Both the position numbers and the translations under genes were made by a program. From Calditrichia bacterium (lineage in GTDB: Bacteria > Calditrichota > Calditrichia > RBG-13-44-9 > J075), in the NCBI GenBank assembly GCA_050633245.1, contig JBOEGD010000011.1, positions 192,001 to 256,000 on the forward strand: a stretch of DNA of 64,000 bases, read 5' to 3'. The notes under the pieces were generated by a model. The model saw only the letters and a list, made by a program, of their open reading frames with translations. It was not told the origin of the DNA and ran no database searches. This document shows positions 1 to 19,146 of this stretch, one piece after another; the first letter of the stretch is position 1; each line of letters starts with the position of its first letter.

Positions 1-197
1 AACAAGCCGCCCAGCCAGTAACGCAGAGTTAGCCTGACCGAATCTTGCTCGGCGCGATCATTGTACAGCATGGCAAGCCTTGAGGCAGAGTAAGAGATTT
101 CTTCCCACAGAACATCTTGTGCTTTCGCAGTGGTGCCCAAATTAAACAGGGCGAAGAAGCAAAGAATAGCGCTAAGACAGAACGCTGTGCCAGTCAT
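1..197 (-). CDS. Secreted protein, N-terminal part (runs off the window start)
   Basis: Manually translated from ATG at 197: MTGTAFCLSAILCFFALFNLGTTAKAQDVLWEE... This is a Sec-type signal peptide (AKA-Q). The frame is open to the window edge and overlaps the GH3 3' end by 26 nt. Confidence 0.65.
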   Translation of the reverse strand, partial: MTGTAFCLSAILCFFALFNLGTTAKAQDVLWEEISYSASRLAMLYNDRAEQDSVRLTLRYWLGGL

Positions 198-1815
198 TCG
201 GCTGCTCGAGAAAGCGCGGCTTGATGGTTCCGCTAATGGCTGTTTTGGCTCGGAAGGCATAGTAGAGTTTGTCGGCGCCTTTAGGCAGCGCTTGCGCTTG
301 AAAGGCAGCGAGTTGGTAAAGCGATCGGCAGTTCTGATAGTGGTAGTTTTCACAAAGGCCCTTTTCGATATCAAGTGCTAACTTCGCAAAATTATGTTCA
401 ACGTCTGTGGTATAAAACAAGCAGTAGCTGCTAGGTTTTTTTTGCGTGTTTGCCGCGACAAAGTAGAATGAGCTCTGAATGGACTGGTTTCGAAACGCCA
501 CTTCAACTACGTCACGCAGGTGCTGTTCACTGATTTTTTCGCCATATAGATCTGAAATGCCATCCTTTTTCCCGAGAAATTTTAAGCAGGGTGCCTGATG
601 AAAATACCCGGTGCACAAAACTCTGTCGTTTAGGCGGTAGCGATATAACCCGCCAGACGTTGTAATTATCACACTATATTCACCGTTTTCTCTTAGTTCA
701 GTCGCGGTATGAACTGTGCCATTTGCAAGGTTCTCGAACTCGTAAAAATGTGATGTTGCCGTCAAAACATGTTGCGGTGTTTCATCTTTAGTACTCTGTA
801 TTGGAATAGTTACAATACCCTCTGTTGCCAGTAACCCCTTTGGTTGAACCGCGACACCGGGAAATGCTTTTTTAAGTTCTGGAATTGAATTCTTTGCCCA
901 CGCATCAGCCCAACAGCTTATAAGTGCAAGGTTGGGCCAGATTGCACGCCAGTCCCGCGAGGTGACCGCCTGCTGAATTAAGGTGGCTCTTTCCTTTTTT
1001 CCCTTGAAGATGCCTTTTATTTGCTTTAGCTGAACCGATGGCAAAGGTGAGGGGGGCGTTATACTTCCTGAAGCTAAATCTTGGAATAGTGCATCCTGCC
1101 ACAGGATTGCTTTGTCCATAAGAACCAGCAGGGAGGTTGGATTCCAGAGAGAAATAAGTCTTAAATTCTCTTCGCTGAACAGAAAAAGCAAAGATAGATA
1201 TGCATGATTTTCCATGTCTGTTACAGTGGAAAGTACTGGGGGAATCACCATTAATTGTCTTACAAGCTTTCTCTCAACAAAAGACAGGTAATCTGAATCT
1301 GACGCGAACTCAATGGGAATGACGCTCTGTTCAGGTTTGGTAATTGGTGTGGGCGGTGAGACGAACCAGTATGCCCGTCCTGCCATTAATTCCGGATAGG
1401 TAGACATCAAATTGTATATCCATGCTCCAATAGCTTGCTGAAATTCGTTTCTCAGTGTGGGTGTTGAGGGGATGTATTTGCACGCGCTGGCCGTACCGCT
1501 TGTAGGTTCAAATCTTGTAATAGCTGACGCGGTCAGCACATTTTCTTCCCCGGTCATTATGCGCTGAATCTGCTGAGAATAGTCCTGGTAATCTGTAACT
1601 GGCACCTGCTCTTGAAACTCAGCGACCGTGCGAATTCTGGAAAAGTTGTGCTCACTACCAAAACGGGTGTTTTGATTTACATTAAGGATGTTTTCCAGGA
1701 TAGCAGTTTGAGCAGTCCGAACATTTTTGCATGCGTACAAAAAGTTTTTCCAGCTTTTTCGGGAGCTGAATTTCCAAATGGAATTGGCGAGGTAGGGGAT
1801 AGATGGTGAAATCAT
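172..1815 (-). CDS. GH3 family acyl-adenylate/amide-forming ligase
   Basis: GH3 motifs F..QVPVTDY, FEPTSGT (P-loop-like), ATEG, HFYEF and TTSGGLYRYRLNDRV, and GEKISE. The start is placed at ATG 1815 because GTG 1830 lies inside a hairpin. Confidence 0.9.
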   Translation of the reverse strand: MISPSIPYLANSIWKFSSRKSWKNFLYACKNVRTAQTAILENILNVNQNTRFGSEHNFSRIRTVAEFQEQVPVTDYQDYSQQIQRIMTGEENVLTASAITRFEPTSGTASACKYIPSTPTLRNEFQQAIGAWIYNLMSTYPELMAGRAYWFVSPPTPITKPEQSVIPIEFASDSDYLSFVERKLVRQLMVIPPVLSTVTDMENHAYLSLLFLFSEENLRLISLWNPTSLLVLMDKAILWQDALFQDLASGSITPPSPLPSVQLKQIKGIFKGKKERATLIQQAVTSRDWRAIWPNLALISCWADAWAKNSIPELKKAFPGVAVQPKGLLATEGIVTIPIQSTKDETPQHVLTATSHFYEFENLANGTVHTATELRENGEYSVIITTSGGLYRYRLNDRVLCTGYFHQAPCLKFLGKKDGISDLYGEKISEQHLRDVVEVAFRNQSIQSSFYFVAANTQKKPSSYCLFYTTDVEHNFAKLALDIEKGLCENYHYQNCRSLYQLAAFQAQALPKGADKLYYAFRAKTAISGTIKPRFLEQPNDWHSVLS

Positions 1816-1824
1816 AATAATAAA

Positions 1825-1850
1825 CGTCACCTGCCGGAAGGCAGGTGACG
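1825..1850 (-). terminator. Perfect 11-bp hairpin after the TonB receptor stop
   Basis: CGTCACCTGCC-GGAA-GGCAGGTGACG, followed by TTTATTATT on the minus strand. Confidence 0.65.
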
Positions 1851-1864
1851 AGATAATTAATGCT

Positions 1865-4468
1865 TTAGAAGCTGAGGTTTAAGGCGCCAAGAATAACGCG
1901 ACCATTAAAACCAAACTGATTTACTTCCCAGGGGTAGCGGAAGCGTCCACCAAGATCGGTTACGACATCGCCGCCGGTCTCAATTTCGTCCGGATAAGTT
2001 CCGGCAATATTGTTAACAAGCAGGCTAAGTGAAATCTGATTGCTGAACGCATAGCTTGCGTTCAAATCGAATATCGGCTTACCAGCAAAGGTCTGATCCA
2101 GAGTTGGGTCGCTGGCGTGCTGCCAGGTTACTTCACCGAAATAGGTTCCGGAGACGCCAACTGTCAGAGGAACAGCCGCAAGATCGTAACTAACACCCAG
2201 GATTACTTTTTGGTTTGGACGAGCGGAAAGAATACGACTTTGCTCTTTGCGATCGAAGATGTCCGCGCCATCGGCTGCCAGAACGGAAGGTGTATTAATT
2301 TGTCCCTCAATTGAGTGATCGTAAAAAGATGCTGCAGCATTGAAGCGCAGGCCATCTTTTGAATAGTTTCCAACCAAATCAAGACCACGAGTGCGACTAT
2401 TAACAGCGTTGATAAAGAATTTCAGGCTGGTAATAGAGTTCGCATCCAGAATTGCGCCAACTGTTGTCGTGGGATCGCTATTGGCAATCGAGCTAGAGAA
2501 AATAATCCGATCATCAACGTCAATCTGAAAAACATCTGCAGAAATATTCACGTTCTGTGATGGGCGAGCTGCAAAACCAAAGGTAAAGTTGATTGATTCT
2601 TCTTCTTTAAGTTCAGCTACGCCAAGTTCACGGAGAATCGGGCTCGTATTGTCAAATGTTCCCTGGTTACTTACGGTTCCACCGGATACAAGCGTTTGAA
2701 TATTACTTAGATTAATTTGATGCAGAGATGGCGCTCGGAAACCAGTTGAAAATGAGCCGCGAACGCTGAAAGAGTTCAGTGGGCTCTTATAGCGAGCTGC
2801 AGCTTTAAACGTTGTGCTGGTACCAAAATCACTATAGTTCTCGAAGCGTACAGCGCCACCAACATAGAAGTCTGGTGTAACGTCAGCGCCAAGATCCAGA
2901 TAGGCACCAAAGTTGGTGCGAGTGGCATCTACTTCATTCTGTGGCTGAAGTCCTGGAAAAGATTGTGCTCCGCCACCAGTGTAGGATGCTTCTTCGCCCG
3001 CGTTGGCAACGAATTTTTCCTGTCGGAACTCACCACCGACACTGGCAAAAATCTGCTCGCTCAGCTGACGGGAGGCATCAACATTGACGATGTTATTGGC
3101 AAATTCATAACCACCAGCATCGAACTCTGTTGGGCTATCTGCACCCAGAGCCGGATTTAACGTATTGCCAATGTTGTAGTCAACCGAATTCATCCCAAAG
3201 GAATAGCTTAGGTCATAATTCCACCCGGATCTGTTGCCACGATAACCGGCAGAGCCTGAGACATCAAGGACATCGGTGTCGAAGGTCGGCTGGAAGCCTT
3301 GATATTCTGTGCCTGCTTCATGTAGTAGATTATTTGGATCCGGAATCCAGTAGGGTGTGCGATATAGTGCGTAGCTCTCACCTTTGCGTAAAACAACGCC
3401 ACCAAATCCATAAATTTCATCAGTTTCATTTACTTTATAAGCACTGTTCAGGTATCCACTGCCCTTTGTCAGGTTTGGCAGACCAACAGTCATACCAAGA
3501 TCAGGGTTAGCCATAATGAAGGGGTCGGTTCCATCAACACCAAACAGCTGATCATCGCCCGGCTCACCGGCACGGTTTGTTTCTTCCTGATCGGAAAAGC
3601 TTGCTGTGAAGTTGATAAAGCCTTTGTTATCAAAATTTTTGCCCGTATTCAAGTGTGCACCATACTGAAAACCATCGCCTTCTTCTGTGATTCCGGAAAA
3701 AGCGTTTATCGTGGTTTTTTCAGTTTCATCAGCCAGAATAACGTTAATAACACCGGCAATAGCGTCTGAACCGTATTGAGCAGAAGCACCGTCACGCAGA
3801 ACTTCAATGCGTTTTATAGAACCAACCGGAATACTACCCATGTCTACGCCGACGTCACCTTTACCAGGCGTGTCATTGATGTAAACGAGTGAGCTTGCAT
3901 TTTTACGCTTACCGTTAATAAGCACCAACGTACGGCTCGGCCCAAGACCACGCAGGTCAGCCGGATCAAAATGCGCCGTTGCATCAGAAATGGTTTGCTG
4001 GGTAGAATTGAAAGAGGGCACGCTATAATGCATCATTTTGTCAAATGATACCTGTGCGGTTGCTTCCAGTTCACGAATGTCGATGTTGTCAATCGGAACA
4101 GGAGAGGTGATGGATGTGCGTGGGCGGAAACGAGATCCTACAGTAGTAACCGACTCACCTGCAATCGCATCTTCTGCCAGAGTAACATAGACATAACTGT
4201 CATTGGTTGCTGTTACGGATTGTGTTGCGTATCCGACATAAGAAAAAACCAGCGTTGCCGGCAGGCTTGCCACCTTAAAGCTAAATGCTCCATCGCTGTC
4301 TGTTGTCGTTCCGTTCTGCGTACCGGACTCAACAACATTTACACCAGCTAGCAGGCTGCCGTCGGCGCCTTTTACCTGGCCGGTAAGAACGACATCTTGT
4401 GCCACCAAAAAGCCGGTTGCTAAAAGAAGCGTAAATACCGCGGTTAATAAATTGTGACGTTGTTTCAT
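1865..4468 (-). CDS. TonB-dependent outer membrane receptor with an N-terminal carboxypeptidase-regulatory-like domain
   Basis: Signal peptide MKQRHNLL...VAQ after a GGAG RBS. Plug motifs LRGLGPSRTLVLINGKR and IEVLRDGASAQYGSDAIAGVIN, STGFRAPSL, and a C-terminal Phe. Confidence 0.95.
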   Translation of the reverse strand: MKQRHNLLTAVFTLLLATGFLVAQDVVLTGQVKGADGSLLAGVNVVESGTQNGTTTDSDGAFSFKVASLPATLVFSYVGYATQSVTATNDSYVYVTLAEDAIAGESVTTVGSRFRPRTSITSPVPIDNIDIRELEATAQVSFDKMMHYSVPSFNSTQQTISDATAHFDPADLRGLGPSRTLVLINGKRKNASSLVYINDTPGKGDVGVDMGSIPVGSIKRIEVLRDGASAQYGSDAIAGVINVILADETEKTTINAFSGITEEGDGFQYGAHLNTGKNFDNKGFINFTASFSDQEETNRAGEPGDDQLFGVDGTDPFIMANPDLGMTVGLPNLTKGSGYLNSAYKVNETDEIYGFGGVVLRKGESYALYRTPYWIPDPNNLLHEAGTEYQGFQPTFDTDVLDVSGSAGYRGNRSGWNYDLSYSFGMNSVDYNIGNTLNPALGADSPTEFDAGGYEFANNIVNVDASRQLSEQIFASVGGEFRQEKFVANAGEEASYTGGGAQSFPGLQPQNEVDATRTNFGAYLDLGADVTPDFYVGGAVRFENYSDFGTSTTFKAAARYKSPLNSFSVRGSFSTGFRAPSLHQINLSNIQTLVSGGTVSNQGTFDNTSPILRELGVAELKEEESINFTFGFAARPSQNVNISADVFQIDVDDRIIFSSSIANSDPTTTVGAILDANSITSLKFFINAVNSRTRGLDLVGNYSKDGLRFNAAASFYDHSIEGQINTPSVLAADGADIFDRKEQSRILSARPNQKVILGVSYDLAAVPLTVGVSGTYFGEVTWQHASDPTLDQTFAGKPIFDLNASYAFSNQISLSLLVNNIAGTYPDEIETGGDVVTDLGGRFRYPWEVNQFGFNGRVILGALNLSF

Positions 4469-4687
4469 AGAATTTCTCCATGATAAAGGACGTGTAGGAT
4501 GAATTAGGGTGTTTTGTTTATCTTTTTTTTTGAATATATCGGTTTGGAATAACTTACGCAAGAGTGTGTTTTCACATATTTTAGGAAAAAGTAAATGACG
4601 AATCATCGATCGAAATGTCCAAAACTTAACACATTTCAGCGAGACGTCAAAAAAGCTGCCTAACAGCATTTTAATATTAACGGGATT

Positions 4688-5422
4688 CTATTCCGCAAGT
4701 TGCAGTGGGGGAGTGTCATCGACATGTTTTTTTAGCTGACGTTTAATAAAAGGCGTAATATTTTCTTCACCAAGTGGGGCAATGCAAACGAGTTCACTGC
4801 CTGTATCTACGTGCGGATTTCTTTCATAAAAATAGTCTACGTGTGGATTGGTACGGCCGCGTAAATCAAACTCTGCTTTTAAAGCCTGTGAAGAGGTCGT
4901 GCCATTAATGAGTCCTGATTGAGGGTCATAGCGATCCGGATAGCGCTTGTGCCCCAGGCTATTAATAAGGTCTGCTTCCCACTTGGGCGTAGGTTTTTCG
5001 TGCCGGGGATAAAACTCATGAAAAAATATTGGAAGAAATCGATATGTTCGAACGCCTTTTGAAATTAACATCCAGTATAATTTCTCCCCCGGGTTGGCTT
5101 TTTTTAATGAAAGCATCAGGTTGCCCCAGGCGATCGGAAGCGCGAAGCTTCCCCAGTAGGTTGAATCGATTACGGTGTCACCGGAAAAAAGAATGAGCAA
5201 TTTCTCGTCGCGAAGGCGATGCTCAAACAGCAATTGCGTCGAGAATCCACAAATTTCATTCTCTTCGTTTCTCAGTAAAATAACCCAATCTTTTTCTGAT
5301 AGATCGGCAGTGAAATTGTGTTCATCGACATTTCGATAATGTCGCTGCATTAACGTCAGCATCTGATGTTGTTCCTGCCTGGTAATTTCGCTGACCGAAA
5401 TGGTTTTTCCTGTAAGTGCCAT
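4688..5422 (-). CDS. GNAT-like protein (putative N-acyltransferase)
   Basis: ICGFSTQ beta strand and GDTVIDSTYWGS resembling GNAT motif A. Starts 1 nt after the upstream stop. Confidence 0.6.
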   Translation of the reverse strand: MALTGKTISVSEITRQEQHQMLTLMQRHYRNVDEHNFTADLSEKDWVILLRNEENEICGFSTQLLFEHRLRDEKLLILFSGDTVIDSTYWGSFALPIAWGNLMLSLKKANPGEKLYWMLISKGVRTYRFLPIFFHEFYPRHEKPTPKWEADLINSLGHKRYPDRYDPQSGLINGTTSSQALKAEFDLRGRTNPHVDYFYERNPHVDTGSELVCIAPLGEENITPFIKRQLKKHVDDTPPLQLAE

Positions 5423-5423
5423 G

Positions 5424-6524
5424 TTACAATGCTCCTAATTCCAGATATGGCGTACGCCCATCCGGAGTTGGGTGAACTGAGTTGTCCCAATAAACATAAT
5501 ACAATCGGCTCAGATATGGAATATGCGGTAGCCCTCTTGCAGCAGATAACAATGCGTCTGTCTCGTGTAATCCCAATAAAACAGAATGTAAATTCTTGTT
5601 TGCTGAAAGAACGGTTTTTAAAAGCTGTATAAAGATATCCTGCTGGTCGTTTAGAATACAGCATAGTGCACAACTTCCATAGTCGAGTTCGCCTTTCGCC
5701 GGCAGGATGGGTTTCCCATAGATCTTGTGCAATAAATTGTAGAGCGGTTTTGCGATGTGAACACTCCGGCTATATGTTTCGATGACAGTTTGCCGAAAGG
5801 ATTTCTGGTTCCATAAAGCCAGCGTACCGAGAATGCGATTAGCCGACTCTGCGATGTAGATATCATGATGTGTTAAGCCGCGGAGAATTCCGGTTGCAGA
5901 TCGAAGGTGAGTTTCCGTGTAGTGAGGGAATAGTTGGCGCTTGCGTCCATTCGTATTTAGAAAGTCTATAATTGCGGGAATGTCTTCCTCTGTTGCTCTT
6001 CGGATACTTGTATGTGTCTTTGGTTCAGAAGCTCTTGCTCGATAGGCTAAAGTAATATACTGCCCGCCGTCGACATATCTTGGTAATCCCGCTTTACCCG
6101 ATGTTAATAGTCGCTTTGCGAGAATATTGTCCTCCACAATCGTGGTGAAATAGTAACGTACCTTTTCAGCATTATGGATTTGCCGTAGATGTTTGTAGCC
6201 TCTGGCAACCGCTAAGCCATTTCGATAGCTCTCTTCGAGGCGTAATCCACTTAAGTAGCCAACTGCGGTTATTTTATCATTTAAATAGCAGTTTTTAACA
6301 GACCGGGTTCCAAAGCCAACAATTTTTTTCGTTTGCTTATCCTTTGCCGTTACAACGTGCGTGCGTTCGCCTTCGACCTGAATTGCCTCAAAAAAGGATG
6401 GCTCACGACGAAAAGAAAGTGAGATTCGTCCCGGCATTGAATTTTCGCGCAGGAGCCGTCTCAGGTCTGCATCATCACTCTGTTTTGCTGAAGCAATGTC
6501 AACGTAGCGCAGTTTATGAGGCAT
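5424..6524 (-). CDS. Tandem-GNAT-fold acyltransferase
   Basis: YLSGLRLEESYRNGL (motif A-like). A second domain begins IRRATEEDIPAI. Overlaps the upstream rSAM stop. Confidence 0.75.
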   Translation of the reverse strand: MPHKLRYVDIASAKQSDDADLRRLLRENSMPGRISLSFRREPSFFEAIQVEGERTHVVTAKDKQTKKIVGFGTRSVKNCYLNDKITAVGYLSGLRLEESYRNGLAVARGYKHLRQIHNAEKVRYYFTTIVEDNILAKRLLTSGKAGLPRYVDGGQYITLAYRARASEPKTHTSIRRATEEDIPAIIDFLNTNGRKRQLFPHYTETHLRSATGILRGLTHHDIYIAESANRILGTLALWNQKSFRQTVIETYSRSVHIAKPLYNLLHKIYGKPILPAKGELDYGSCALCCILNDQQDIFIQLLKTVLSANKNLHSVLLGLHETDALLSAARGLPHIPYLSRLYYVYWDNSVHPTPDGRTPYLELGAL

Positions 6525-7890
6525 GTGCAATTTTTGTGTCAGCAACCTTCAGCAATTCCCCCTTGAAGCGCAGGTCTCCAAGTGGATAGTCTTCACGTTG
6601 CGTAGCCTCCTTGCGCAAGAGTAAATTGATAAACCAATAGGCATGTAGCATAAACAGTCCTCCGGCGTTCGTGCTGTCGAACATGCGATTGACGATAGAC
6701 GGTATGCTGTAAAATGCCTTCCGCGCATTCACGCATTCGCTCTTGATGACATCGGGTGGAATAGCTGTTTTAAACGGTACTTGCCCGTATTGATACCGTT
6801 CATCCATCCACCACTTATCGTAAAGTAACTTTCCTTCTGCTTCGAGCTTCTTGTATAATGGTGTTCCCGGAAAAGGGGTGAGATGATTAAAGGCCGCCAT
6901 ATATATTTTGTGTTTAACACAGAAATCGACGGTTTCCTTAAAAGAATCCATTGTGTCTTCTTCATAGCCAAAGATAAAGGTGGCGTAGAGACGAATGCCA
7001 TATTCCTTGAACTTTGCCAGTGCCGGTTCAAATCCACCCCGCGCAGAGTTGAACTTTTTGTTCATATTTTCAAGATTCTTTTTATTGAGCGACTCGAATC
7101 CGACCAATACCCCCTGGCATCCGCTTTCCTGCATAATCTGAAGAAGTTCTTCATCATAAGACATGGTAATGGATGCCTGGCTTACCCACTTTATGTTGAG
7201 TGGAATCAGCGCGCGATAAAACTCCTTTGCTTCTTTAGGGTAGGATGCAATGTTGTCATCTACAAAGAAGAACAACTTCTTGTCTTGCTTCATTTCCCTT
7301 AACTCGCTAATTATTTCTTCCGTTGTGCGCCGGGTTTGGGTGGCATCGAAGTAACTCGTTACGGCGCAGAACTCACATTTAAAAGTACAGCCCCTTGCCG
7401 CCTCGATGAGGCCCAATTTTAGATAACTCTTGCCTTTGAAAATGCTGCGGTCGGGGCGAATGCGGCTAATGTCGGAGCGTCCTTCAATGCGATAACTACG
7501 CTGCATACAGCCATTTTCAAAATCCTGCAATAGCTGCGGAAAGCTCTGTTCAGCCTCACCGATTACTATTGCCTCGGCATATTCCTGAACTTCCTCGGGA
7601 ATAAGAGTTGTGTGAAATCCGCCCATTACGACGGGAATCCCGCGTCGTCGGTATTCTGTTGCAATCTGGTAGGCGCGCTTGGCAGTATAGGTTTCGACAC
7701 TGATTGCCACTAAATCGGTCGGCTCCTCGTAAGGAATCTCTTCCAGCCTGTCGTCCCAAAAGGCAATGTCCCAATGAGAAGGTCGCAGCGCAGCCAAATA
7801 CGCCGGGGCAAGAGGCTCCATCTGCCAACTTTTAATGTAGGACTTTCCGGGAATTCGTCCGACGCAGGGATGAATAATGGTTAGCTTCAA
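6514..7890 (-). CDS. B12-binding radical SAM protein (copy 4 in transcription order)
   Basis: GGFHTT in the cobalamin-binding domain, RGCTFKCEFC, FVDDN, TPFPGT. TTG start after GAGGTG, with a TTGA overlap on the previous stop. Confidence 0.93.
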   Translation of the reverse strand: MKLTIIHPCVGRIPGKSYIKSWQMEPLAPAYLAALRPSHWDIAFWDDRLEEIPYEEPTDLVAISVETYTAKRAYQIATEYRRRGIPVVMGGFHTTLIPEEVQEYAEAIVIGEAEQSFPQLLQDFENGCMQRSYRIEGRSDISRIRPDRSIFKGKSYLKLGLIEAARGCTFKCEFCAVTSYFDATQTRRTTEEIISELREMKQDKKLFFFVDDNIASYPKEAKEFYRALIPLNIKWVSQASITMSYDEELLQIMQESGCQGVLVGFESLNKKNLENMNKKFNSARGGFEPALAKFKEYGIRLYATFIFGYEEDTMDSFKETVDFCVKHKIYMAAFNHLTPFPGTPLYKKLEAEGKLLYDKWWMDERYQYGQVPFKTAIPPDVIKSECVNARKAFYSIPSIVNRMFDSTNAGGLFMLHAYWFINLLLRKEATQREDYPLGDLRFKGELLKVADTKIAHAS

Positions 7891-9224
7891 AGTGCACCTC
7901 CGAGACAATTGTAAAATGTCGATAAATTTTGAGCATAATAGCGATAGCCGATATTGGCAGCTACGATAACCGGCAATAGTTTTAAGCGATGTTGAAGGCG
8001 ACGTGTATTACGTATGGCCATATTTTTATAACCATAGACATCGCGCCAGATTTTTTCATGGCCGTTTAGCAACTCTGTCGCAGACATTTGTGCTGGTTCA
8101 AAAACAACATGTTGTCCATCGTACAAGCTCCAGTCACGTGAAATAATGCGCTGCTGGGTCTCTAATTGCTTGAATAAGGGTGTTCCGGGAAATGGTGTGA
8201 GTAGAGAGAAGCGTGGCAGATCGATTCCGGTAGACATAACAAAATCCCGAACCTCAGAAAAGCTTTCAAGTGAATCAGAGTCATTGCCAAAAACAAATGT
8301 CCCATTGATGGCAATGCCTAAACGGTGCAGGGTCTCAACAACTGCTGCGTAGGTGTGTGGTCGATTAAAACGCTTGTTCGAGTCTGCCAGCGAACCGGTT
8401 GAAAGACTTTCAAAGCCGATTAGTAATCCTCGACAGCCAGAGCGAGCAAGGAGGTTGAGCAATTCTTCATCTTCAACAATGAGTGTTGTGGCAAGTCCAA
8501 ACCATTTAATTCGCAATGGGATCAACGCAGTAAACAGCTGCTTTGCATAGCGCCGATCGGCAATTATGTTGAGATCGTAGAAAACCAGATGCTTCGCACC
8601 AAGCTGCCGAATATCTTCCACTACATGCTGCACGGGCTTCAAGAATGGCTTTCTGCCCCAAGCTGACGGCACCACGCAGAAGTCGCACTTGTGTACGCAC
8701 CCGCGCGTGGCTTCAAATGTGTTCATAGACTTAAAAGCGCGCTTGTCTAACATGTCTCGTTTGGCAAAGGGGATGGATGGCATATTGTTAAAGGAAAAGT
8801 CTGGGGACATATCGTAGCGTGGTTTTAACTGCCCGGATTTATAGTCGTGTAGAAGTAATGGCCAGGACTCTTCGGCATAGCCGGTAACAATACTGTCTGC
8901 ATGTAGCTGCGCTTCCTCGGGTAGCAAGGTGACATGTGGCCCGCCGAGCACAACGGTTTTACCCTCGTTTTGAAATTGCTTTGCAAGCTCATAAGCACGT
9001 GGAGCCGTTCCGGTAATGACCGTCATACCAACCAGATCAGCATCAATGCGTTCTGGAAGATCCTCAATGCCCTCGTCATAGAGGATAATCTCAGCATTGA
9101 GTTTCTCTGGAACCAACGATGCCAAAGTTGTCAGTGTCAACGGGGCAACTCTGAGCGACTTGCGAAAAATGCCGGTCCGATGACGATAGAGCGGTCCCTT
9201 TGGGGATATGAGTGCTATTTTCAT
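7887..9224 (-). CDS. B12-binding radical SAM protein (copy 3, the most divergent)
   Basis: GGPHVT, RGCVHKCDFC, FYDLN, TPFPGT. Confidence 0.93.
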   Translation of the reverse strand: MKIALISPKGPLYRHRTGIFRKSLRVAPLTLTTLASLVPEKLNAEIILYDEGIEDLPERIDADLVGMTVITGTAPRAYELAKQFQNEGKTVVLGGPHVTLLPEEAQLHADSIVTGYAEESWPLLLHDYKSGQLKPRYDMSPDFSFNNMPSIPFAKRDMLDKRAFKSMNTFEATRGCVHKCDFCVVPSAWGRKPFLKPVQHVVEDIRQLGAKHLVFYDLNIIADRRYAKQLFTALIPLRIKWFGLATTLIVEDEELLNLLARSGCRGLLIGFESLSTGSLADSNKRFNRPHTYAAVVETLHRLGIAINGTFVFGNDSDSLESFSEVRDFVMSTGIDLPRFSLLTPFPGTPLFKQLETQQRIISRDWSLYDGQHVVFEPAQMSATELLNGHEKIWRDVYGYKNMAIRNTRRLQHRLKLLPVIVAANIGYRYYAQNLSTFYNCLGGAL

Positions 9225-9243
9225 TGCAAAACCTGCGGTTTTG

Positions 9244-9354
9244 AGTTCAAAGTTCAAGGTTCAAAGTTCAGAGTTAGACTAAAAAACTTGTGTCGAACAG
9301 AAGCTTATCAAGCTATCCAATGAATAAACGTTGAACTCTGAACGCTGAGCTTTG
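9244..9354. repeat. Heptamer tandem repeats (AGTTCAA-like) with a degenerate inverted array
   Basis: AGTTCAA AGTTCAA GGTTCAA AGTTCAG at 9244-9271, and TTGAACT CTGAACG CTGAGCT at about 9331-9351. Confidence 0.75.
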
Positions 9355-9357
9355 TTT

Positions 9358-10689
9358 TTAGTGTAGCCCGAAACGCATTCCCTGTTTTTTAAATGTCTCT
9401 TTGCGATAGAGCGGTGTATATCGCAGGTAGACAGCCATCTTATATAAAGAACTCATATTCGTACTGAAATCGAATGCTCGCCGGATGATTGCCCCTACCC
9501 GATTGTAATCTGATCGCAGTTGAAAGCAAGCTTCCGTTAATTCAGCAGGGGTCATGTTCTTTGGTTTGAACGTTGCGTGATTGAAGCGATATTCGGGATG
9601 CAGCCACCACTTATTATTATACAAGAGCCGTCCTTCTTTCTTCATGCGTTCGTAAAGTGGCGTTCCCGGATATTGAACAAGTATGTTAAAAGCGGCAAAG
9701 GTAAACTTGTTCTCCTGTGCAAACTGACCGGTTGCCATAATGGATTCCAGCGTATCATGATCATGCCCAAGAGTAAAGGCAGCCCAGGTTTGCAGCTTAT
9801 GCTTACGCAGAACTTCAAGCTGTGCCGAATACGTGTCAAATTGCTTGGTAAGGTTCGGGCCCTTTTTCATCCACTGCAGGCTGCCGGGATCGAGAGACTC
9901 AAAACCAATCACATTGCCAACACACCCGCTGGCGGCCATCAGCTCCATCAACTCGGGATCACGCGTCATATCTATACTGGCTTGAGAAACCCAGTGAACC
10001 TTTAGAGGGATCAACGCTCGGAACAACTCTTTGGCTGCTGCCTGGTCGGATACAATGTTGTCATCAACAAAAAAGATCAGTTTGCGCTCCGATTCCTGAA
10101 TTTCGCGAACCAATTCCGGGATATTGCGGGTATAGTGCTTGCGGCTAAAAAAAGAACTGACTGCACAAAAGGTACAGGCAAAGCGACAGCCGCGGGTAAA
10201 CTGCATCAGCTTGATAGGAAGATAACCCTTGCCCTTAAAAATATCTCTGCGCGTCATAACGCCTGGCTGCGGGACACCCACATTCGCTTTATAGACTGGC
10301 TTCAGTTTGCCTTTCTCGGCGTCGGCTATCATTTCTGCCCACCGAAACTCGGCATCGCCAATATAGATAGAGTCTGCATGTGCCTGAACTTCTTCAGGTA
10401 TCAGCGTCGGCTGCATTCCGCCCATAATCACCTGAACACCGCGCTTGCGGTATTCCGCGCCTATCTCATACGCTCGGCGTGCGGTATAGGTCTCTACGGT
10501 AATAGCAACAAGGTCGGTTTTCTCATCATAGGGAATCTCTTCACAGCGATCATCGTACATCACAACTTCAACATCCGGCGGGGTTAACGCGGCAAGAACG
10601 CCAAGCTGAAGCGGCTCCATACGACCTTCATCAACGTAGAGGCTGTGTTCCATGCGTCCAATATTGGGCTTTATAAGCGTCAATTTCAT
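9358..10689 (-). CDS. B12-binding radical SAM protein (copy 2)
   Basis: GGMQPT, RGCRFACTFC, FVDDN, QYPGT. GAGG RBS. Confidence 0.93.
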   Translation of the reverse strand: MKLTLIKPNIGRMEHSLYVDEGRMEPLQLGVLAALTPPDVEVVMYDDRCEEIPYDEKTDLVAITVETYTARRAYEIGAEYRKRGVQVIMGGMQPTLIPEEVQAHADSIYIGDAEFRWAEMIADAEKGKLKPVYKANVGVPQPGVMTRRDIFKGKGYLPIKLMQFTRGCRFACTFCAVSSFFSRKHYTRNIPELVREIQESERKLIFFVDDNIVSDQAAAKELFRALIPLKVHWVSQASIDMTRDPELMELMAASGCVGNVIGFESLDPGSLQWMKKGPNLTKQFDTYSAQLEVLRKHKLQTWAAFTLGHDHDTLESIMATGQFAQENKFTFAAFNILVQYPGTPLYERMKKEGRLLYNNKWWLHPEYRFNHATFKPKNMTPAELTEACFQLRSDYNRVGAIIRRAFDFSTNMSSLYKMAVYLRYTPLYRKETFKKQGMRFGLH

Positions 10690-10701
10690 ATCAACCTCTT
10701 G

Positions 10702-12018
10702 TTATGCCGGTGAACAGCCACCCAGCGTGCGGCCTTGTTTATCTAAAATCTCCCAGCGTGCAACCACATTCGATGCCAGGAAGATGCCCAGGCGATAAGG
10801 ATTAAACCAGTTGTCCCGATAACTGAATGCGCGACGAAAAATACTGTTGTAGTAATTGAATTCCTTGCGAGCCATAAAGCAGCCATCGGTTAACTGTTTG
10901 GCGGTCATGTTCTTCGGCTGAAAGGTTGCATCGCCATAACGATAGCTCTCGGCAAGCCACCACTTGTCATATAGCAATCGACCCTCTTTCTCAAGGCGAT
11001 CATAAAGCCCGGCTCCCGGGGTTGGCATAAGAGGATTAAAGTTAGCCAGAAAGAAGTTATGTCTAAGGGCAAAGTCTAACGTGGTGCGAAAACTATCTGG
11101 AGTATCATGGTCATAGCCAAATACAAAGGTGCCGTAGAGCATAATGCCAAGGCTCTTTAGCTTCTTAATAGCTACTTCATAGTCGCCATACTTCACGTTC
11201 CACTTTTTCTTCATTTGCGCAAGATTGTCTTCATTAAGCGATTCGAAACCTATAAGGGCAGATATGCAGCCGCTGCGTCGCATAAGACGCAGTACGTCTT
11301 CATGGCGGGTAATATCTATGCTTACCTGACAAGACCAGGTGATCTTAAGTGGAATGAGTGCCTCGAAGAGAGCGCGAGCTTTATCTAAATCGACAAATAA
11401 ATTGTCATCAACCAGGAAGACGTGGTGCGGGCTTAGTGCCTTTATTTCGGCAATGACCTCTGGAATGTCGCGCTGACGGAGATCTTTGCCGTAAAAGGCA
11501 TGGATCGAGCAAAAGTCGCAGGCGAAGCGACAGCCGCGTCCATATTGAACCGGTGTGGCAGGGCGATAGCGTTTTCCCCTAAATATGCTGCGATCATAGT
11601 TCAGCTGCTTCAATCCGGGGTGAACATCTTGCCTGTATATCTTTTGAAGTGAGTTTGTTCGGGTGTCCTCAACGACCATTTCCCAGAGACCTTCGGCATC
11701 GCCAATTACTACGGCGTCTGCATGCTCCAGCGCCTCATCGGGCAGAAAGGTTGCATGATATCCACCCATGACGACTGGCACGCCGCGTTTGCGAAACTCA
11801 TCTGCTATTTGATAAGAACGCCGGGCCGTGAAGGTCTCAACAGTCATTGCGACGAGGTCGGTTGCTTCATTGAAAGGAATAGCTTCCAGGCGCTCATCAT
11901 AAAAGAGGGTTTCTACATCGTCGGGTGTCAGTCCTTTGAGGATGGAAAACACAAGAGGCTGTAGCGCATCCGAAGAGCGCATGTCGTATAGATTCGGGCG
12001 GATAAAAGTGATTCGCAA
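10702..12018 (-). CDS. B12-binding radical SAM protein (copy 1)
   Basis: TTG start at 12018 after GGAGAA. GGYHAT, RGCRFACDFC, LVDDN, MPTPGA. Confidence 0.93.
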   Translation of the reverse strand: MRITFIRPNLYDMRSSDALQPLVFSILKGLTPDDVETLFYDERLEAIPFNEATDLVAMTVETFTARRSYQIADEFRKRGVPVVMGGYHATFLPDEALEHADAVVIGDAEGLWEMVVEDTRTNSLQKIYRQDVHPGLKQLNYDRSIFRGKRYRPATPVQYGRGCRFACDFCSIHAFYGKDLRQRDIPEVIAEIKALSPHHVFLVDDNLFVDLDKARALFEALIPLKITWSCQVSIDITRHEDVLRLMRRSGCISALIGFESLNEDNLAQMKKKWNVKYGDYEVAIKKLKSLGIMLYGTFVFGYDHDTPDSFRTTLDFALRHNFFLANFNPLMPTPGAGLYDRLEKEGRLLYDKWWLAESYRYGDATFQPKNMTAKQLTDGCFMARKEFNYYNSIFRRAFSYRDNWFNPYRLGIFLASNVVARWEILDKQGRTLGGCSPA

Positions 12019-12301
12019 GGTTAATTCTCCAAGTGCGGAATCGTCAGTTATGCAGCTAAAATTGCCGATTGAAAAGTGCAATGAGCGTTATACTCATGTT
12101 ATCGTTTTCAGCTGATATAGGCAATAGTCATTTCATGTGTTTTGCTGATGTTGTCAAAATGCTGAAATTTCGCTGTAGCGTCATGGGTCACGATGTATAC
12201 GTGAAATTATTCATACTATTTGCACAATATTGATCCTGGTTCTATGTTGTGATAATTAATGACATAAGAGGTCGTGACCTGGTGGTCGTGACGCATAATA
12301 A

Positions 12302-15300
12302 ATGATTTTCAGACGATCCTTTAAAATTTCTCTTTTTCTATTCCTCGCTCTTACGGCAAGCTCTGCATCTGCCGAAGAATTGCTGGTGCAATTTAAGAAG
12401 CCTGATCTGATTATTTCGTCAAAGGGTGTCTCTGCCAATTCACTGACTATTCAGGGGGTATTAAATACCTCGCCTCCCCAAGCAGCAAGGCTTCTCTTTC
12501 CGAATAGACAGCACACGCTTCCAAAACCATTGCGAAACATCTACGTTTTGACCTATGCTGCTGGAAAGTCCGGCGTTGCCCATTCTGCTTTGCAAAAGAT
12601 TGATGATGTGGTTTACGTGAAACCTAAGGTTACGCTGAGCATTCGTGGCAAGCAATCCGATCCGCTTTTAGCTGAACAGTGGTATCGGCAGACGTTAAAT
12701 ATTGACGAGGCATGGAATACAACTCGTGGAGATGCGTCAATTGTTGTCGGTATCATTGATACTGGCGTAGATTATCGCCATGAAGACCTTCAGGGGGCAC
12801 TTTGGATAAATAACGCGGAAGATTTGAACGGCAATGGCACACTTGATGCCTCGGATGAAAACGGGATTGATGATGATGGCAATGGCTATGTCGATGACGT
12901 TGTCGGCTGGGATTTTACCGATGCTCCGGCATTTCCAGATCAAGGCGACTATCTCGATCCTGATAATGACCCCGATGACGAGTTCCTTAGTGGACACGGT
13001 ACGCCTGCTGCCGGGCTCATTGCTGCCCAACAAAACGATGTGGGAATCGCCGGAATTGCACCAGGTTTGAGGGTAATGGCATTGCGAGCCGGAACTGCTT
13101 CCGGCTTTTTAGAAGAAGATGATGTTGCTGAGGCCATCCTGTATGCAATTGACAACGGCTGCCGAATTGTTAACATGAGCTTTGGAGACGTGGCTTTTTC
13201 GTATTTGTTGCGCGATGTGATTCGGTATGGCTCAGAAAAAGGACTTATCTTTGTCGCAGCTGCCGGAAATAGTGGTAGCAGCATTCCGAACTATCCAGCC
13301 GCCTATGCAGAAACGATTTCCGTTGGTGCAACGACGATCGAGAATCAACGAGCTTCTTTTTCCAGCTTTGGCAATACGCTGAACCTGGTTATGCCAGGGC
13401 AAGATGTTTTCGCTACGCAGATTGAAAACGGATATGGCAGCTTTAACGGAACGTCCTTTTCTGCTCCGTTAGCCTGCGGCGTGCTCGGACTCATTCTTTC
13501 AGCAAATCCGAACATGACGTCGGAGCAAGCAATTGGTGCCTTATACGGAAGCGTTCAAGATTTAGGGCTTCGCGGATGGGATGAGCGATACGGACATGGT
13601 TTGCCGGACGCAGCACGCGCTGTTACAGCGGGCAAGAATGGTTACGTGGCCATAACGAACCCCGCTGGTGGAGATGGCACTGCTGCTGATTTTGTACCTG
13701 TCATTGGTAGCGCATACTCGCCGTGGATCGATGAGGTTGTCCTGTCATACAGCGTTGGGGAAACGCAGCAGCGTTGGCAGGAAATTGAGCGAATTGATGG
13801 TCGCCAGGTTGTCGATGATACGCTGACTGTCTGGGATACCAGCAGTTTAGACGATGGTCGCTATACATTGGAACTGAGACTGAAGCAGCTTGCACTTGAG
13901 GATGTGGTTGTTCGCCAGAGCATTGAAATTGATCGTTCTCCGGCTGTCATTGATTCGTTCTTTACCACGAAGCTATATGATAAGTCTAAATCTGCGATCC
14001 TGATGCGTTTTCAAACCGATGACGTTACGTTGGCCCGCGCCAGTTTCTTTGATGAAAATGGCGCGCTACTCCTCAACAAAACGTCTACATATCGCAGTCG
14101 TGCACACAGCTTTTTGATTGGCGAGCAAGAACTTCCAACTACATCAAATGTAGTGATCGAATTACAAAATACTTCCGGATTAAATAGCCAGTTTGGCGAC
14201 AATGGGAATACGATCTCTCTTTCAATCCCAAAAGCCGCAAACCCTGAATACCTGCTGGATTTTGTCGGGCTGCTTCCCGTTAACGGATATTTTATGCCAC
14301 ATCCGGTCGACATGAACAATAATGGTGCCGCAGAAATAGTTGTCTCGGAGTTAATTGACGAACGTTTCGGATCGGTTGCGGTTTTGGAAACGGATGGCAG
14401 TAATATAACCCGCCTGTTTGAGACCGCTGAGACAGGTATTCCGCGAGCTGCCGGTGTCTTGCGGAGTAATGGTGGATTCGACTTGGCCCTTGGTCTGGGT
14501 AGCCGCTCAATGATATTGGGAAATGCTTTAACCGATAGTATTCCGAAGGAAGTGGTTTGGCAAGACAGCAGTGATTTTTGGATCAGTCGCATCATCAATA
14601 CAGATGATGACGCGGAAAATGAAGTTCTGGCGCTGCGATTTGGCACCTGGCGGATTTTTGAGGTCGATAATGCCTATCAGCTTTCCGAAAAACAAAAGCT
14701 CTCAACGGTAGGGGAGGGCAGCAATGTATTCGGTGTGCCCAACGCATTGTTTGCTGACTTTAATGGAGATGGAAAAGAATCCATCGTTGTAAGTGATGTT
14801 TCCGGACAATTGATTGTTTACGACCGGGCTGGATCTGAATATCTGCCTGAGTGGACGGCGCAACTTAACGGTCAGGGAGGCGAAAGTCTTTTGGCTGCTG
14901 CGGATGTCGATGGAGATGGCGTTCCGGAAATTGCTGCTGCTGTTAGAAATCAACCAAAAGTATTACTCGAATCAAATGTAAACGATAAGTTCTGGTCCCT
15001 TTCGGTATGGGGTTTTAACGATAGTGGCGAGCTGGTTCAGCTGGCTGAAGATAATATTCTTGGCATCACTGCGCAAAGTGGTATTCACAATGGTTTAAGC
15101 GCGGCAGACCTGGATAATGATGGTTTAGATGAAATTGTATTCCTGCCATTTCCCAACGGTTATGCTTTTGGCTATGAAGCAAATGAATTAAAACTTCGCT
15201 GGTATCAGGAGGGCGTGAATAGCAATGCGGCTCCCTGGGCAGATTTTACCGGTGATGGCCAAAAAGACTTATTGCTCAACACCGAAAACGGCATAGAGCT

Positions 15301-16441: not shown

Positions 16442-16457
16442 AACGGAATGGAGCAGC

Positions 16458-17660
16458 ATGGCAGGACGAAAACGAAAGCAAACAGAACATGAAGTTCTTC
16501 TTATTGGGTTAACCGGTGGTATGGGCTGTGGACAATCTACAGTAGCAAAGCACTTTGAGTCTAAAGGCTGTTTAGTTTTAAGTGCAGATAAAATTGCACA
16601 TAAAATACTTGACCGTAATAATGATGTAAAGCAAGAGCTGGGTAAAATATTCGGCAGACGAATATTCTTTCGCAATCGCAGAATCAATCGACGTGTTTTG
16701 GGCGAATTGGCTTTTAAAAGCAAAGAAAAAACACATAAGCTCAACAAAATTGTGCATCCGCGTCTGGTTGAAGAGGTGATCAATCGAGTTGCCAGTGCCC
16801 GTGAATCCCGCAAGTATAAAGTTGTTTGTCTCGATGCAGCTCTTATTTACGAAACGCAGATGGAAAAGATGTTTGACTATGTTGTTGTCGTGGCATCGCG
16901 AATGAAGCTGCGAATAACGCGAATCCAGGAAAGAGATAAGCTGGATGAAATATTGATCAAAGATCGCATGGAAAATCAAATTCCAATAGAAGAGAAGTCT
17001 AAGTGGGGCGATTTTGTTATCCACAACAATGGCACGCTCGAACAGCTTGAGGAAAAATCCGTAAAACTCTATAAGCAGATTTTAGCCAAGCCGGATATAT
17101 TGAAAATCCGGGCCAAGCGAGATGCTGTAAAACCGCGTCGCAGACCACAAACAAAGCTAGTTGAAAAGGAAGCACAAGAGATCGAGGTGGTTGATCAAGC
17201 GTCTGAAAACACAGTTAAACCAGCGAGCGAACCAACTAAGCGAAAGCCCCGTGCACCGCGTAAGCCACGTAAGCAGGTAGCCAAGCCGGAGAACGAAGCC
17301 GCAACTTCTCCCGAAGAAACTATTGAAGCCTCTGCACCAATAGAAGAAACCGGCACTGACACAAAGCCTGTAGAAGAAAAAGCTTCTAAGCCCGCCGGAA
17401 GAAAGCCTCGGGCGAAATCCACAAGAAAGCCAAAACCAAAAGCAGAGGTCGCTGAAGCGGAAAATAAAGAGACGTTGGAACCAGCTGCTATGCCGACGGC
17501 TGAAGTGAAGTCTAAACCTGAGCCTGAAGTAAAGCCCGAAGTAAAAGTGGAGAACGAGGTAAAAGCAGAAACAGAAGCTCCACCTAAACCAAGAGTTCGA
17601 AGTGGACGTCGGCCTCGTCGTATTGGTCCAAAACGAACTAAGCCGCCAACCGAAGGATAA
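16458..17660 (+). CDS. coaE: Dephospho-CoA kinase with a long low-complexity C-terminal extension
   Basis: IGLTGGMGCGQS, ADKIAH, LNKIVHP, DAALIYE, QIPIEEK, IHNNG. Roughly the last 190 aa are K/E/P/R-rich. Confidence 0.88.
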   Translation: MAGRKRKQTEHEVLLIGLTGGMGCGQSTVAKHFESKGCLVLSADKIAHKILDRNNDVKQELGKIFGRRIFFRNRRINRRVLGELAFKSKEKTHKLNKIVHPRLVEEVINRVASARESRKYKVVCLDAALIYETQMEKMFDYVVVVASRMKLRITRIQERDKLDEILIKDRMENQIPIEEKSKWGDFVIHNNGTLEQLEEKSVKLYKQILAKPDILKIRAKRDAVKPRRRPQTKLVEKEAQEIEVVDQASENTVKPASEPTKRKPRAPRKPRKQVAKPENEAATSPEETIEASAPIEETGTDTKPVEEKASKPAGRKPRAKSTRKPKPKAEVAEAENKETLEPAAMPTAEVKSKPEPEVKPEVKVENEVKAETEAPPKPRVRSGRRPRRIGPKRTKPPTEG

Positions 17661-17670
17661 ACGACCGCAA

Positions 17671-19113: not shown

Positions 19114-19146
19114 GTAGCATGAATTTTACCACGATGAAAGCAGTCG

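Follow-up and report, generated by a model that had tools for sequence, protein, structure and literature searches.

The first 12.1 kb of a 64,000-nucleotide stretch of a Calditrichia bacterium genome (contig JBOEGD010000011.1, positions 192,001 to 256,000; the whole stretch is called the window below) are filled by nine co-oriented open reading frames (ORFs) on the minus strand, as the initial annotation of this DNA had described. Seven of them, encoding four radical S-adenosylmethionine (SAM) enzymes (rSAM1 to rSAM4), two proteins assigned to the GNAT fold and a GH3-family ligase, form a cassette that recurs across phyla. Its invariant core is a triad made up of a small GNAT, the GH3 enzyme and a tandem GNAT, to which the rSAM genes are an add-on module, and the TonB-dependent receptor and the secreted protein encoded in the same row are local neighbours outside the system. 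With moderate confidence, we propose that the cassette makes an unknown amide-linked lipid, which would be assembled by the GH3 enzyme and the two GNATs and then tailored at C-H bonds by the rSAMs in O2-independent reactions. The pathway is undescribed, and the triad-only form, a GNAT-GH3 fusion, a fixed C-terminus in the tandem GNAT and the exclusion of the receptor are new here.

Conservation of the triad and its radical SAM module

A genome scan with a tandem-GNAT pattern taken from a 7-row alignment, covering one genome per species, gave 11 loci, from Calditrichia, several Planctomycetota lineages, Verrucomicrobia, a delta-proteobacterial metagenome-assembled genome and a bin that carries the label Nealsonbacteria. 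Eight of these loci, representing at least four phyla, keep the order rSAM-A, rSAM-B, tandem GNAT, GNAT, GH3 on a single strand (L013 was counted among the eight though its GH3 is in two pieces). Among the other three, one ends with its contig after the GNAT gene, one has the GH3 gene inverted, and one is rearranged, with at least six rSAM genes and no GH3 within 21 kb. Four further loci, all from metagenomes, were found through the small-GNAT search: two identical records in which the triad is accompanied by three convergent rSAM genes, a triad on a short contig and a lone GNAT. At L019 a solitary small-GNAT homologue lies among unannotated genes and is uninformative. The recurrence of these genes in unchanged order across other phyla puts the arrangement far beyond chance. 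The initial annotation had postulated a stand-alone rSAM/GNAT/GH3 pathway and had named a lack of linkage in other genomes as the finding that would count against it; the linkage is conserved there.

The composition of the core emerged from the Planctomycetota, in which the tandem-GNAT profile matches 25 of 401 sampled genomes. Twenty of these 25 matches were analysed, with up to 20 kb around each: cassette rSAMs are present in eight loci, seven have the triad but lack rSAM homologues in the stretch analysed, and the remaining five hold distant tandem-GNAT homologues only (24-26% identical). In five triad-only genomes the best rSAM4-like match is 27-33% identical (114-175 bits in four of them, 67.6 in the fifth), compared with 43-84% for cassette orthologues, and such matches never lie beside the triad, the nearest being about 28 kb away. 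Having four rSAM genes is therefore not the defining trait, since most cassettes have two and the triad occurs without any.

In the window, the gene row comprises the following features.

10702..12081, minus strand: rSAM1, B12-binding radical SAM enzyme, accessory B-type paralogue (PF04055 57.4 bits, PF02310 34.1 bits, CRFACDFC)
9358..10689, minus strand: rSAM2, B12-binding radical SAM enzyme, accessory B-type paralogue (PF04055 46.8 bits, PF02310 25.3 bits, CRFACTFC)
7887..9257, minus strand: rSAM3, clade-A radical SAM enzyme (PF04055 56 bits, PF02310 41.7 bits, CVHKCDFC)
6514..7908, minus strand: rSAM4, clade-B radical SAM enzyme (PF04055 70.8 bits, PF02310 36.9 bits, CTFKCEFC)
5424..6545 (likely start ATG 6524), minus strand: tandem GNAT, N-myristoyltransferase-like (AlphaFold2 model, fold matches)
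4688..5422, minus strand: small GNAT, predicted single GNAT fold (AlphaFold2 model, fold matches)
1865..4669 (likely start ATG 4468), minus strand: TonB-dependent receptor (Plug, beta-barrel and CarboxypepD_reg domains; ribosome-binding site (RBS) GGAGA)
1825..1850, minus strand: strong terminator-like hairpin that follows the receptor stop directly and lies just ahead of the GH3 start
172..1830 (likely start ATG 1815), minus strand: GH3-family ATP-dependent amide ligase (PF03321 170.1 bits, GH3_M and GH3_C)
1..374, continuing past the window start, minus strand: 5' part of a signal-peptide, outer-membrane beta-barrel-like protein (no Pfam match)

The tight packing first reported for the enzyme genes holds: the six upstream ones have five junctions, of which four are overlaps (rSAM3/rSAM4 and rSAM4/tandem GNAT) or spacings of 1-12 nt (12 nt for rSAM1/rSAM2, 1 nt for tandem GNAT/small GNAT), and the fifth, rSAM2/rSAM3, is a gap of 100-133 nt, with TTG 9257 or ATG 9224 as start alternatives of rSAM3. 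The likely start of rSAM1 is a TTG at 12018 with an RBS (GGAGA) ahead of it, and this is also where the region singled out by the initial annotation ended.

A second line of evidence joins the small GNAT to the GH3 enzyme. In an exhaustive HMMER profile search the small-GNAT family has 2304 cluster representatives at E<=0.001 and 879 at E<=1e-30 (representatives being protein clusters at 50% identity), and three of the best 150 are GNAT-GH3 fusions of 726-788 aa, in which the GNAT comes first and is followed by a complete GH3. A word-indexed search had returned no longer (fused) small-GNAT forms and is superseded by this result. Two of the fusions are 40% identical and colinear across 781 aligned columns, and the GH3 part is 34% identical to the window GH3. 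Since the fusion has been maintained in evolution, the two enzymes would be expected to catalyse consecutive or coupled steps; they are exactly the pair that the receptor gene splits in the window.

Within the phylum of the window, tandem GNAT homologues were found in three of 86 genomes, the window genome included, and G068 is the only close relative with the full cassette, on contig C58. The neighbourhoods of the cassette differ between these two Calditrichia-type genomes, and the base composition of the cassette in the window is not distinct from that of its flanks. The cassette is patchily distributed and probably mobile. An ISL3-family transposase gene 360 nt past the cassette GH3 in one locus (L006:13835-15040) and an integrase-core fragment upstream of the cassette in another (L011:4070-4432) fit mobility. 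In G066, of the same family as the window genome, a 1746-nt contig (L016) carries a tandem-GNAT homologue (28% identical) beside an rSAM4-like gene (42%), and this pair may be a further and more distant type of cassette in that family.

Families and predicted folds of the cassette enzymes

Of the two GNATs named in the initial annotation, the fold was borne out by AlphaFold2 models built on alignments of relatives, and a match to sequence models was not. For these two proteins no Pfam family is matched at E<=10 apart from one spurious match, the Pfam models of N-myristoyltransferase (NMT) being included in that search. An NCBIfam scan of both proteins returned only AAC(6') at E 0.045, which was counted as no match, and profile searches of the two families against PDB sequences gave zero matches and three matches at E>=0.32. 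PF00583 is present in 23 of 120 listed relatives of the tandem GNAT, and a Pfam domain in none of 120 listed relatives of the small one. As neither database gives a match, the GNAT label is not verifiable by sequence models and comes from structure prediction alone.

In its model (373 aa, pLDDT 91.3) the larger protein has a tandem GNAT fold. The best Foldseek matches are NMTs (E 2e-13, TM 0.60-0.64), and a Foldseek-independent structure search placed yeast NMT first (Z 22.6, rmsd 3.9, 304 residues), with an alignment that spans residues 10-373 of the model and 74-455 of the chain and so reaches both C-termini. The runners-up are 7q3a (Z 21.9), a second NMT (21.9) and 4zm6 (21.7), with 5kf1 also tied, and FemX-type (aminoacyl-tRNA-dependent) enzymes reach just 12.7-13.2. 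A C-terminus of the form ...YLELGx[L/M] stands at the identical position in 118 of the 120 best relatives, the other two being truncated sequences, and few alignments other than those with NMTs continue along the C-terminal tail to the last residue of both proteins. According to the accessible part of PMC7048800, the catalytic base of NMT is its C-terminal carboxylate; given the fixed C-terminus and the alignment with NMT to the chain end, an NMT-like C-terminal carboxylate base may be proposed for the tandem GNAT as well. A complex prediction for the tandem and small GNATs scored 0.00, which weighs neither way. A 905-aa frame that seemed to link tandem GNAT and rSAM in L062 was rejected as a fusion, as the rSAM lies in another frame and stop-free frames are common at 73% G+C.

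The small GNAT, modelled at 244 aa with a pLDDT of 92.3, has a single GNAT fold in that model, with Z-scores of 10-12.8 against many acetyltransferases and a Foldseek probability of 1.00. LasI (Z 11.1) and the N-acyl amino acid synthase FeeM (Z 10.3) match it no better than other GNATs do.

The GH3 identity given at the outset is confirmed by Pfam, all three domains lying above the cut-off of 23.6 bits (PF03321 170.1, PF23571 and PF23572 60.2 and 26.7 bits), and the gene is the sole GH3 gene of the genome. Three nucleotide-binding motifs can be read in the protein, TSGTASACK at 110, LLATEGIV at 333 and GGLYRYRLND at 393, and they are kept in 8, 9 and 9 of nine aligned cassette GH3s, respectively; the accessible text of PMC12493201 gives the corresponding motifs of plant GH3s and of the bacterial enzyme OlsH as SSGTSxGxxK-like, YGSSE-like and GLYRYRLGD-like. 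The protein fails the OlsH model NF052613 (52.2 bits against a cut-off of 620, with only residues 10-166 matched), and its best relatives of solved structure are plant enzymes that conjugate auxin, jasmonate and benzoate. In a Planctomycetota locus (L013:11863-13358), the cassette GH3 is in two pieces in different ORFs, which may be a frameshift or a decaying copy.

All four rSAM proteins match PF04055 (Radical_SAM), and CxxxCxxC can be read in all four translations. They had been described as four rSAMs with this motif and a B12-binding domain; the motif stood in every case, and the Pfam cut-off of PF02310 (B12-binding) was reached in three, rSAM2 falling below it (25.3 against 32.1 bits). 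As rSAM2 aligns along its whole length with cassette B-type paralogues at 41-45% identity, the four proteins can be placed among class B (cobalamin-binding) radical SAM enzymes, cobalamin binding being predicted.

A quick maximum-likelihood tree of 36 rSAMs with SH-aLRT support, on which all clade statements here rest, contains two deep clades, A and B (SH-aLRT 100), and each cassette has one member of each. The window has one A-type enzyme (rSAM3) and three of B type, with rSAM1 and rSAM2 in two further clade-B subclades: rSAM1 groups with paralogues of L008 and L017, rSAM2 forms its own subclade, and together the two group with the paralogues of L008 (Verrucomicrobia), L017 and L012, a delta-proteobacterial and a metagenome locus being among these. 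Since they group with paralogues from distant loci, the four-rSAM state appears to be old and transferable, not the outcome of local duplication. Identities to the L008 paralogues are 60% for rSAM1 and 61.6% for rSAM2, and rSAM3 is 69% identical to its counterpart in the Calditrichia locus L003 and 63% to that in L008.

Identity between the window and L003 is very uneven, at 84% for rSAM4 and 69% for rSAM3, compared with 47% for the tandem GNAT, 51% for the small GNAT and 42% for GH3, and the same skew, with the rSAM pair high and the triad low, recurs against L008. This suggests either that rSAM pair and triad have separate histories, through module exchange, or that they evolve at very different rates.

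With regard to function, none of the four rSAMs reaches the NCBIfam cut-off for BchE, HpnJ, HpnR, PhpK, TIGR04072, ApyD, KedN5 or tryptophan 2-C-methyltransferase. The highest score for any characterised class-B family is that of rSAM4 with PhpK (105.8 bits against a cut-off of 600), and the other class-B models give 13-100 bits against cut-offs of 360-750: 67-100 against 481 for BchE, the top model for rSAM1, 74-97 against 578 for HpnJ, 41-68 against 650 for HpnR, 46-74 against 360 for the ladderane-type TIGR04072 and at most 89.6 against 750 for ApyD. These low scores, together with the finding of no paper on the cassette, agree with the earlier failure to recognise a characterised cluster; subscription-only papers lie outside the literature covered.

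The receptor, the secreted protein and the limits of the gene row

The TonB-dependent receptor, whose identity the Pfam domains confirm, and the secreted protein had both been counted as parts of the system, and this was not sustained, as the 35 other loci contain no homologue of either. In G068 a receptor orthologue (68% identical) is encoded on contig C29, away from the cassette on C58, between a gene for an AMP-binding enzyme on one side and genes for a formamidase, a pyridoxal-phosphate (PLP) decarboxylase and a GNAT on the other. Of 16 genomes in the family, 10 encode a receptor homologue, whereas just three have a homologue of the tandem GNAT. In the window the receptor has its own RBS and is bracketed by two hairpins. 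The first, at 4655-4667 after the small-GNAT stop, is the weaker; the second, at 1825-1850, has 11 pairs, eight of them G-C, with a T-rich tail next to it, and lies in the 34-49 nt spacer between receptor and GH3. The spacer between the small GNAT and the receptor is about 219 nt long, assuming the RBS-supported start, and A+T-rich. The receptor is therefore a separate unit inserted between GNAT and GH3, outside the cassette. A 28-nt inverted repeat (1803-1830 and 4454-4481, 75% complementary) flanks the receptor, extends into the start regions of both that gene and GH3, and may be due to chance; no target-site duplication was found around the gene.

The secreted protein likewise lies outside the system. 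Its gene, which may overlap the GH3 stop by about 26 nt, was completed by examining the sequence past the window start, where the full ORF (L002:14019-15374) encodes 392-451 aa with a signal-peptide-like N-terminus and no Pfam match. The nearest Atlas clusters are named outer-membrane beta-barrel proteins and are Bacteroidota-like.

One suggestion of the initial annotation was a metallophore or other diffusible metabolite handled by the receptor. The receptor gene does share the strand of the row in which it stands, and its product would have an outer-membrane-type protein as a neighbour in the next gene; yet both genes are missing from all 35 other loci, the G068 orthologue lies elsewhere, the hairpins and separate RBS set the receptor apart, its distribution in the family differs from that of the tandem GNAT, and by Pfam there is no siderophore-type enzyme among the nine genes. 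Given the non-linkage, the hairpins and the RBS, the metallophore reading loses its only support, and we regard it as extremely improbable. A wrong link between the enzymes and the adjacent receptor is thereby removed. Nor is there support for a receptor that imports B12 for the rSAMs under riboswitch control: an Rfam scan of positions 1-20000 returned no cobalamin riboswitch and two matches at chance level only (E 0.5-0.9).

The outer limits of the gene row are fixed by the genes on either side. Past the window start, following the completed secreted-protein ORF, a DUF790 protein and an XPB-type helicase (ResIII, XPB_DRD and ERCC3 C-terminal domains) are encoded on the cassette strand (L002:11267-13847) and have no bearing on the cassette. 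On the upstream side a divergent gene starts at 12302 (12302-16441, plus strand) and encodes an S8 subtilase of 1379 aa that contains FG-GAP repeats and an fn3 domain. As first reported, no polyketide synthase, non-ribosomal peptide synthetase or terpene cyclase domain is present in the nine genes or the flanks.

No precursor-like ORF was seen in the window either, since the 220-nt leader holds ORFs of 22-27 aa only and there are none between the genes. This bears on the idea that the enzymes modify a peptide or protein, be it a ribosomally synthesised and post-translationally modified peptide (RiPP), a lipopeptide or an N-terminus acylated by the NMT-like enzyme, with the rSAMs methylating the peptide. 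NMT does acylate peptide N-termini, the RiPP model of ApyD is among the rSAM matches, and genes for Peptidase_M28 and extra Radical_SAM/Fer4_12 proteins stand beside the cassette in some anaerobe loci. We nevertheless judge a peptide substrate very unlikely: besides the missing precursor, clustering with a minimum of 80 aa disclosed no small-ORF family shared among loci (shorter ORFs were not searched systematically), ApyD stays far below its cut-off, the triad occurs without any rSAM, and membrane lipid enzymes are recurrent neighbours.

The probable product and its relation to known systems

The genes around the triad in other genomes suggest a product that is hydrophobic and probably a lipid. 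In the seven rSAM-free loci, Rieske/VanA_C oxygenases were found in five, FA_desaturase in three (up to three copies), FA_hydroxylase together with an MMPL/Patched/sterol-sensing transporter in two, and AurF-like di-iron proteins and MarR in two. In all seven there is a gene for a large FG-GAP protein, the same ORF or the one next to it encoding an ASPIC/UnbV domain, and three of these proteins have an RnfD-like N-terminal region. A large FG-GAP protein is also encoded near the triad in L055, and the divergent subtilase of the window has such repeats, but proteins of this kind are generally abundant in these phyla. FA_desaturase is likewise present in six rSAM-bearing loci (L004, L007, L008, L013, L054 and L066), along with PAP2 in L008, L054 and L066, Rieske proteins in L004, L007 and L066, AurF-like proteins in L008 and L054, and SnoaL/DUF4440 in all but L007, and a FA_desaturase-PAP2 fusion occurs in L066 and in the triad-only locus L072.

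Further rSAM-bearing loci lack the desaturase set, and extra non-B12 radical SAM genes are found in L005, L011, L056 and L060, Peptidase_M28 at L012 and L060, and a phosphatidylserine-decarboxylase homologue at L012. The Radical_SAM genes with Fer4_12 (L005:4154-6725, L060:6180-8623, L056:11119-12396 and L011:11907-13598) are in anaerobic-looking loci and may constitute a further tailoring module; the L005 and L011 genes belong to one family. In the Planctomycetota locus L056 (3812-7088) a pyruvate-formate-lyase-like glycyl-radical enzyme and its activase directly adjoin the cassette GH3.

The acyl-amide envisaged in the initial annotation, probably a lipid, is the best reading of these data. 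From the observed families, folds and gene linkage, the fusion, the fixed C-terminus, the modular rSAMs and the non-linkage of the receptor, we infer substrates, an order of steps, a lipid product and a chemistry for the rSAMs. Fatty-acyl donors and an amine, such as an amino acid, would be joined by the triad into a small lipid with several amide bonds. GH3 would adenylate a carboxylate and then couple it to an amine, and the GNATs would transfer acyl groups from CoA or acyl carrier protein (ACP) thioesters to free amines, the tandem GNAT possibly using its C-terminal carboxylate as a base, as NMT does, on an acceptor that is probably a small amine and not a protein. The rSAMs may modify unactivated C-H bonds of the product without O2, most likely by methylation, otherwise by desaturation or cyclisation. 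In aerobic lineages the triad is found with membrane desaturases, fatty-acid hydroxylases and Rieske oxygenases instead of, or besides, the rSAMs.

Several observations weigh against a lipid product made in this way. The seven proteins have no lipid-specific domain or membrane segment, all core proteins looking soluble; and the lipid-type accessory genes are seen elsewhere, none being present in the window or its flanks. Plant GH3s act on small acids, and OlsH is not an orthologue of the cassette GH3. The Rieske/VanA_C, AurF-like and MarR neighbours would also be consistent with aromatic-acid chemistry, the Z-score of NMT lies less than 1 unit from those of acetyl-CoA-using tandem GNATs, and no GNAT subfamily fits the small GNAT better than another. 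Because the BchE, HpnJ and PhpK models match the rSAMs about equally, and far below their cut-offs, methylation is no more than the commonest precedent, and because a strong hairpin parts GH3 from the upstream genes in the window, co-expression there is unproven. Finally, gene calls in high-GC loci came from our own GC3-based heuristic, which is approximate, and a subset of ORFs was scanned.

An alternative product is a small soluble or diffusible acyl-amide (a signal, an antibiotic or an osmolyte-like conjugate) in place of a membrane lipid; GH3 would then couple a small or aromatic acid to an amino acid, as its plant counterparts do, with GNATs that acetylate and rSAMs that C-methylate. The plant relatives of GH3, the many matches of both GNATs to acetyltransferases of small amines, the neighbours of aromatic type in several loci, the soluble look of the core proteins, and the EamA transporter and MFS fragment that L017 has close to its cassette would all suit such a product. 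On the other hand, FA_desaturase, FA_hydroxylase, PAP2 and MMPL/sterol-sensing transporters recur beside the triad, the sole characterised bacterial GH3 uses fatty acids (PMC12493201, in its accessible text), the best match of the tandem GNAT is a long-chain acyl-CoA enzyme, and no dedicated exporter is conserved with the cassette, so that a soluble product seems unlikely to us.

In another reading, the enzymes decorate an envelope molecule that the cell already has and that bears an amine or carboxyl group, such as an aminated hopanoid, a polyamine, a lipid A or glycan amine or an aminolipid. The cassette has no fatty-acid- or amine-forming enzyme of its own, an optional decoration would account for its patchy distribution (3 of 86 genomes in the phylum of the window, 25 of 401 sampled Planctomycetota), the rSAMs have HpnJ among their top models, and two loci have the MMPL/sterol-sensing transporter. 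We think this decidedly unlikely, as the triad is kept across phyla with very different envelopes, which argues for universal substrates, the HpnJ scores are far from the cut-off, and no linkage to hopanoid, lipopolysaccharide (LPS) or polyamine genes is conserved in the loci scanned.

A broader form of the lipid proposal is also conceivable, if only as a minority view: the products would be a new class of glycerol-free, multiply amide-linked membrane lipids, carried by gene transfer into a dozen phyla, with two interchangeable tailoring toolkits, di-iron and Rieske oxygenases in the presence of O2 and B12-rSAMs in its absence, and some class-B rSAMs would be anaerobic counterparts of lipid desaturases or hydroxylases, not methylases. 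The window would then hold the fully anaerobic, four-rSAM form. If the amide-lipid proposal itself is true, it reveals a large gene family for an unknown bacterial lipid or lipid-like amide, found in many phyla and mostly in uncultured bacteria of sediment, soil and freshwater, lengthens the short list of pathways to membrane lipids other than phospholipids, provides a candidate source for orphan environmental lipids, and offers up to four new class-B rSAM reactions on a tractable small substrate.

The closest characterised system is OlsH/OlsI of Singulisphaera acidiphila, in which, according to the accessible text of PMC12493201, OlsH, likewise a soluble bacterial GH3 with ATP-dependent amide formation and the three motifs, makes N-acyl ornithine from a fatty acid and ATP; it is also found in Planctomycetota and FCB-group bacteria. 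The gene row differs in having neither the OlsI alpha/beta-hydrolase (in the nine genes and 15 kb past the window start) nor the OlsG methyltransferase. The partners of its GH3 are instead two GNAT-fold proteins and class-B rSAMs, and radical SAM, GNAT, B12 and acetyltransferase go unmentioned in that accessible text. A 2026 review of ornithine lipids, in the portion available, mentions neither radical nor cobalamin. The available portion of a review of lipid radical SAM enzymes (PMC13459092) lists Tes, Mss, Gms, GrsA/B, Gmm, Cds, HpnH/J/P/R, Jaw5 and ladderane candidates, and in that portion GH3, GNAT, N-acyl, ornithine and aminolipid are not mentioned. The lipid class-B enzymes HpnP/HpnR, HpnJ and GrsA/B have the same architecture as the window rSAMs, a B12-binding domain with CxxxCxxC, and the gene context of the latter likewise suggests a hydrophobic substrate, but these rSAMs are far below every curated HpnJ, HpnR, TIGR04072 and BchE model.

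Among acyltransferases, FeeM and LasI share the predicted fold of the small GNAT, fit it no better than dozens of acetyltransferases (Z 10-12.8) and, like it, have no recognisable canonical CoA-pyrophosphate motif by alignment reading; the small GNAT differs in having no sequence similarity to Pfam or PDB entries. Eis-type tandem GNATs, like NMT, employ a C-terminal carboxylate base. The tandem GNAT shares with NMT and Eis-type enzymes a two-lobed GNAT chain, as modelled, and its alignment with yeast NMT reaches both C-termini; its own C-terminus, strictly constant in length and sequence, would fit a base of this kind. It differs from NMT in being bacterial, in lying in a biosynthetic operon, in matching no Pfam NMT model and in having an acceptor that is probably a small amine.

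BchE and AcsF are a pair of O2-independent and O2-dependent enzymes, and the two forms of the cassette resemble them, the triad standing with B12-rSAMs in anaerobic-looking loci and with di-iron or Rieske oxygenases in rSAM-free loci. Because six loci carry both the rSAM and the oxygenase sets, these are not strict alternatives. The triad with oxygenases and the triad with rSAMs would still amount to a natural experiment on the same molecule tailored with and without O2.

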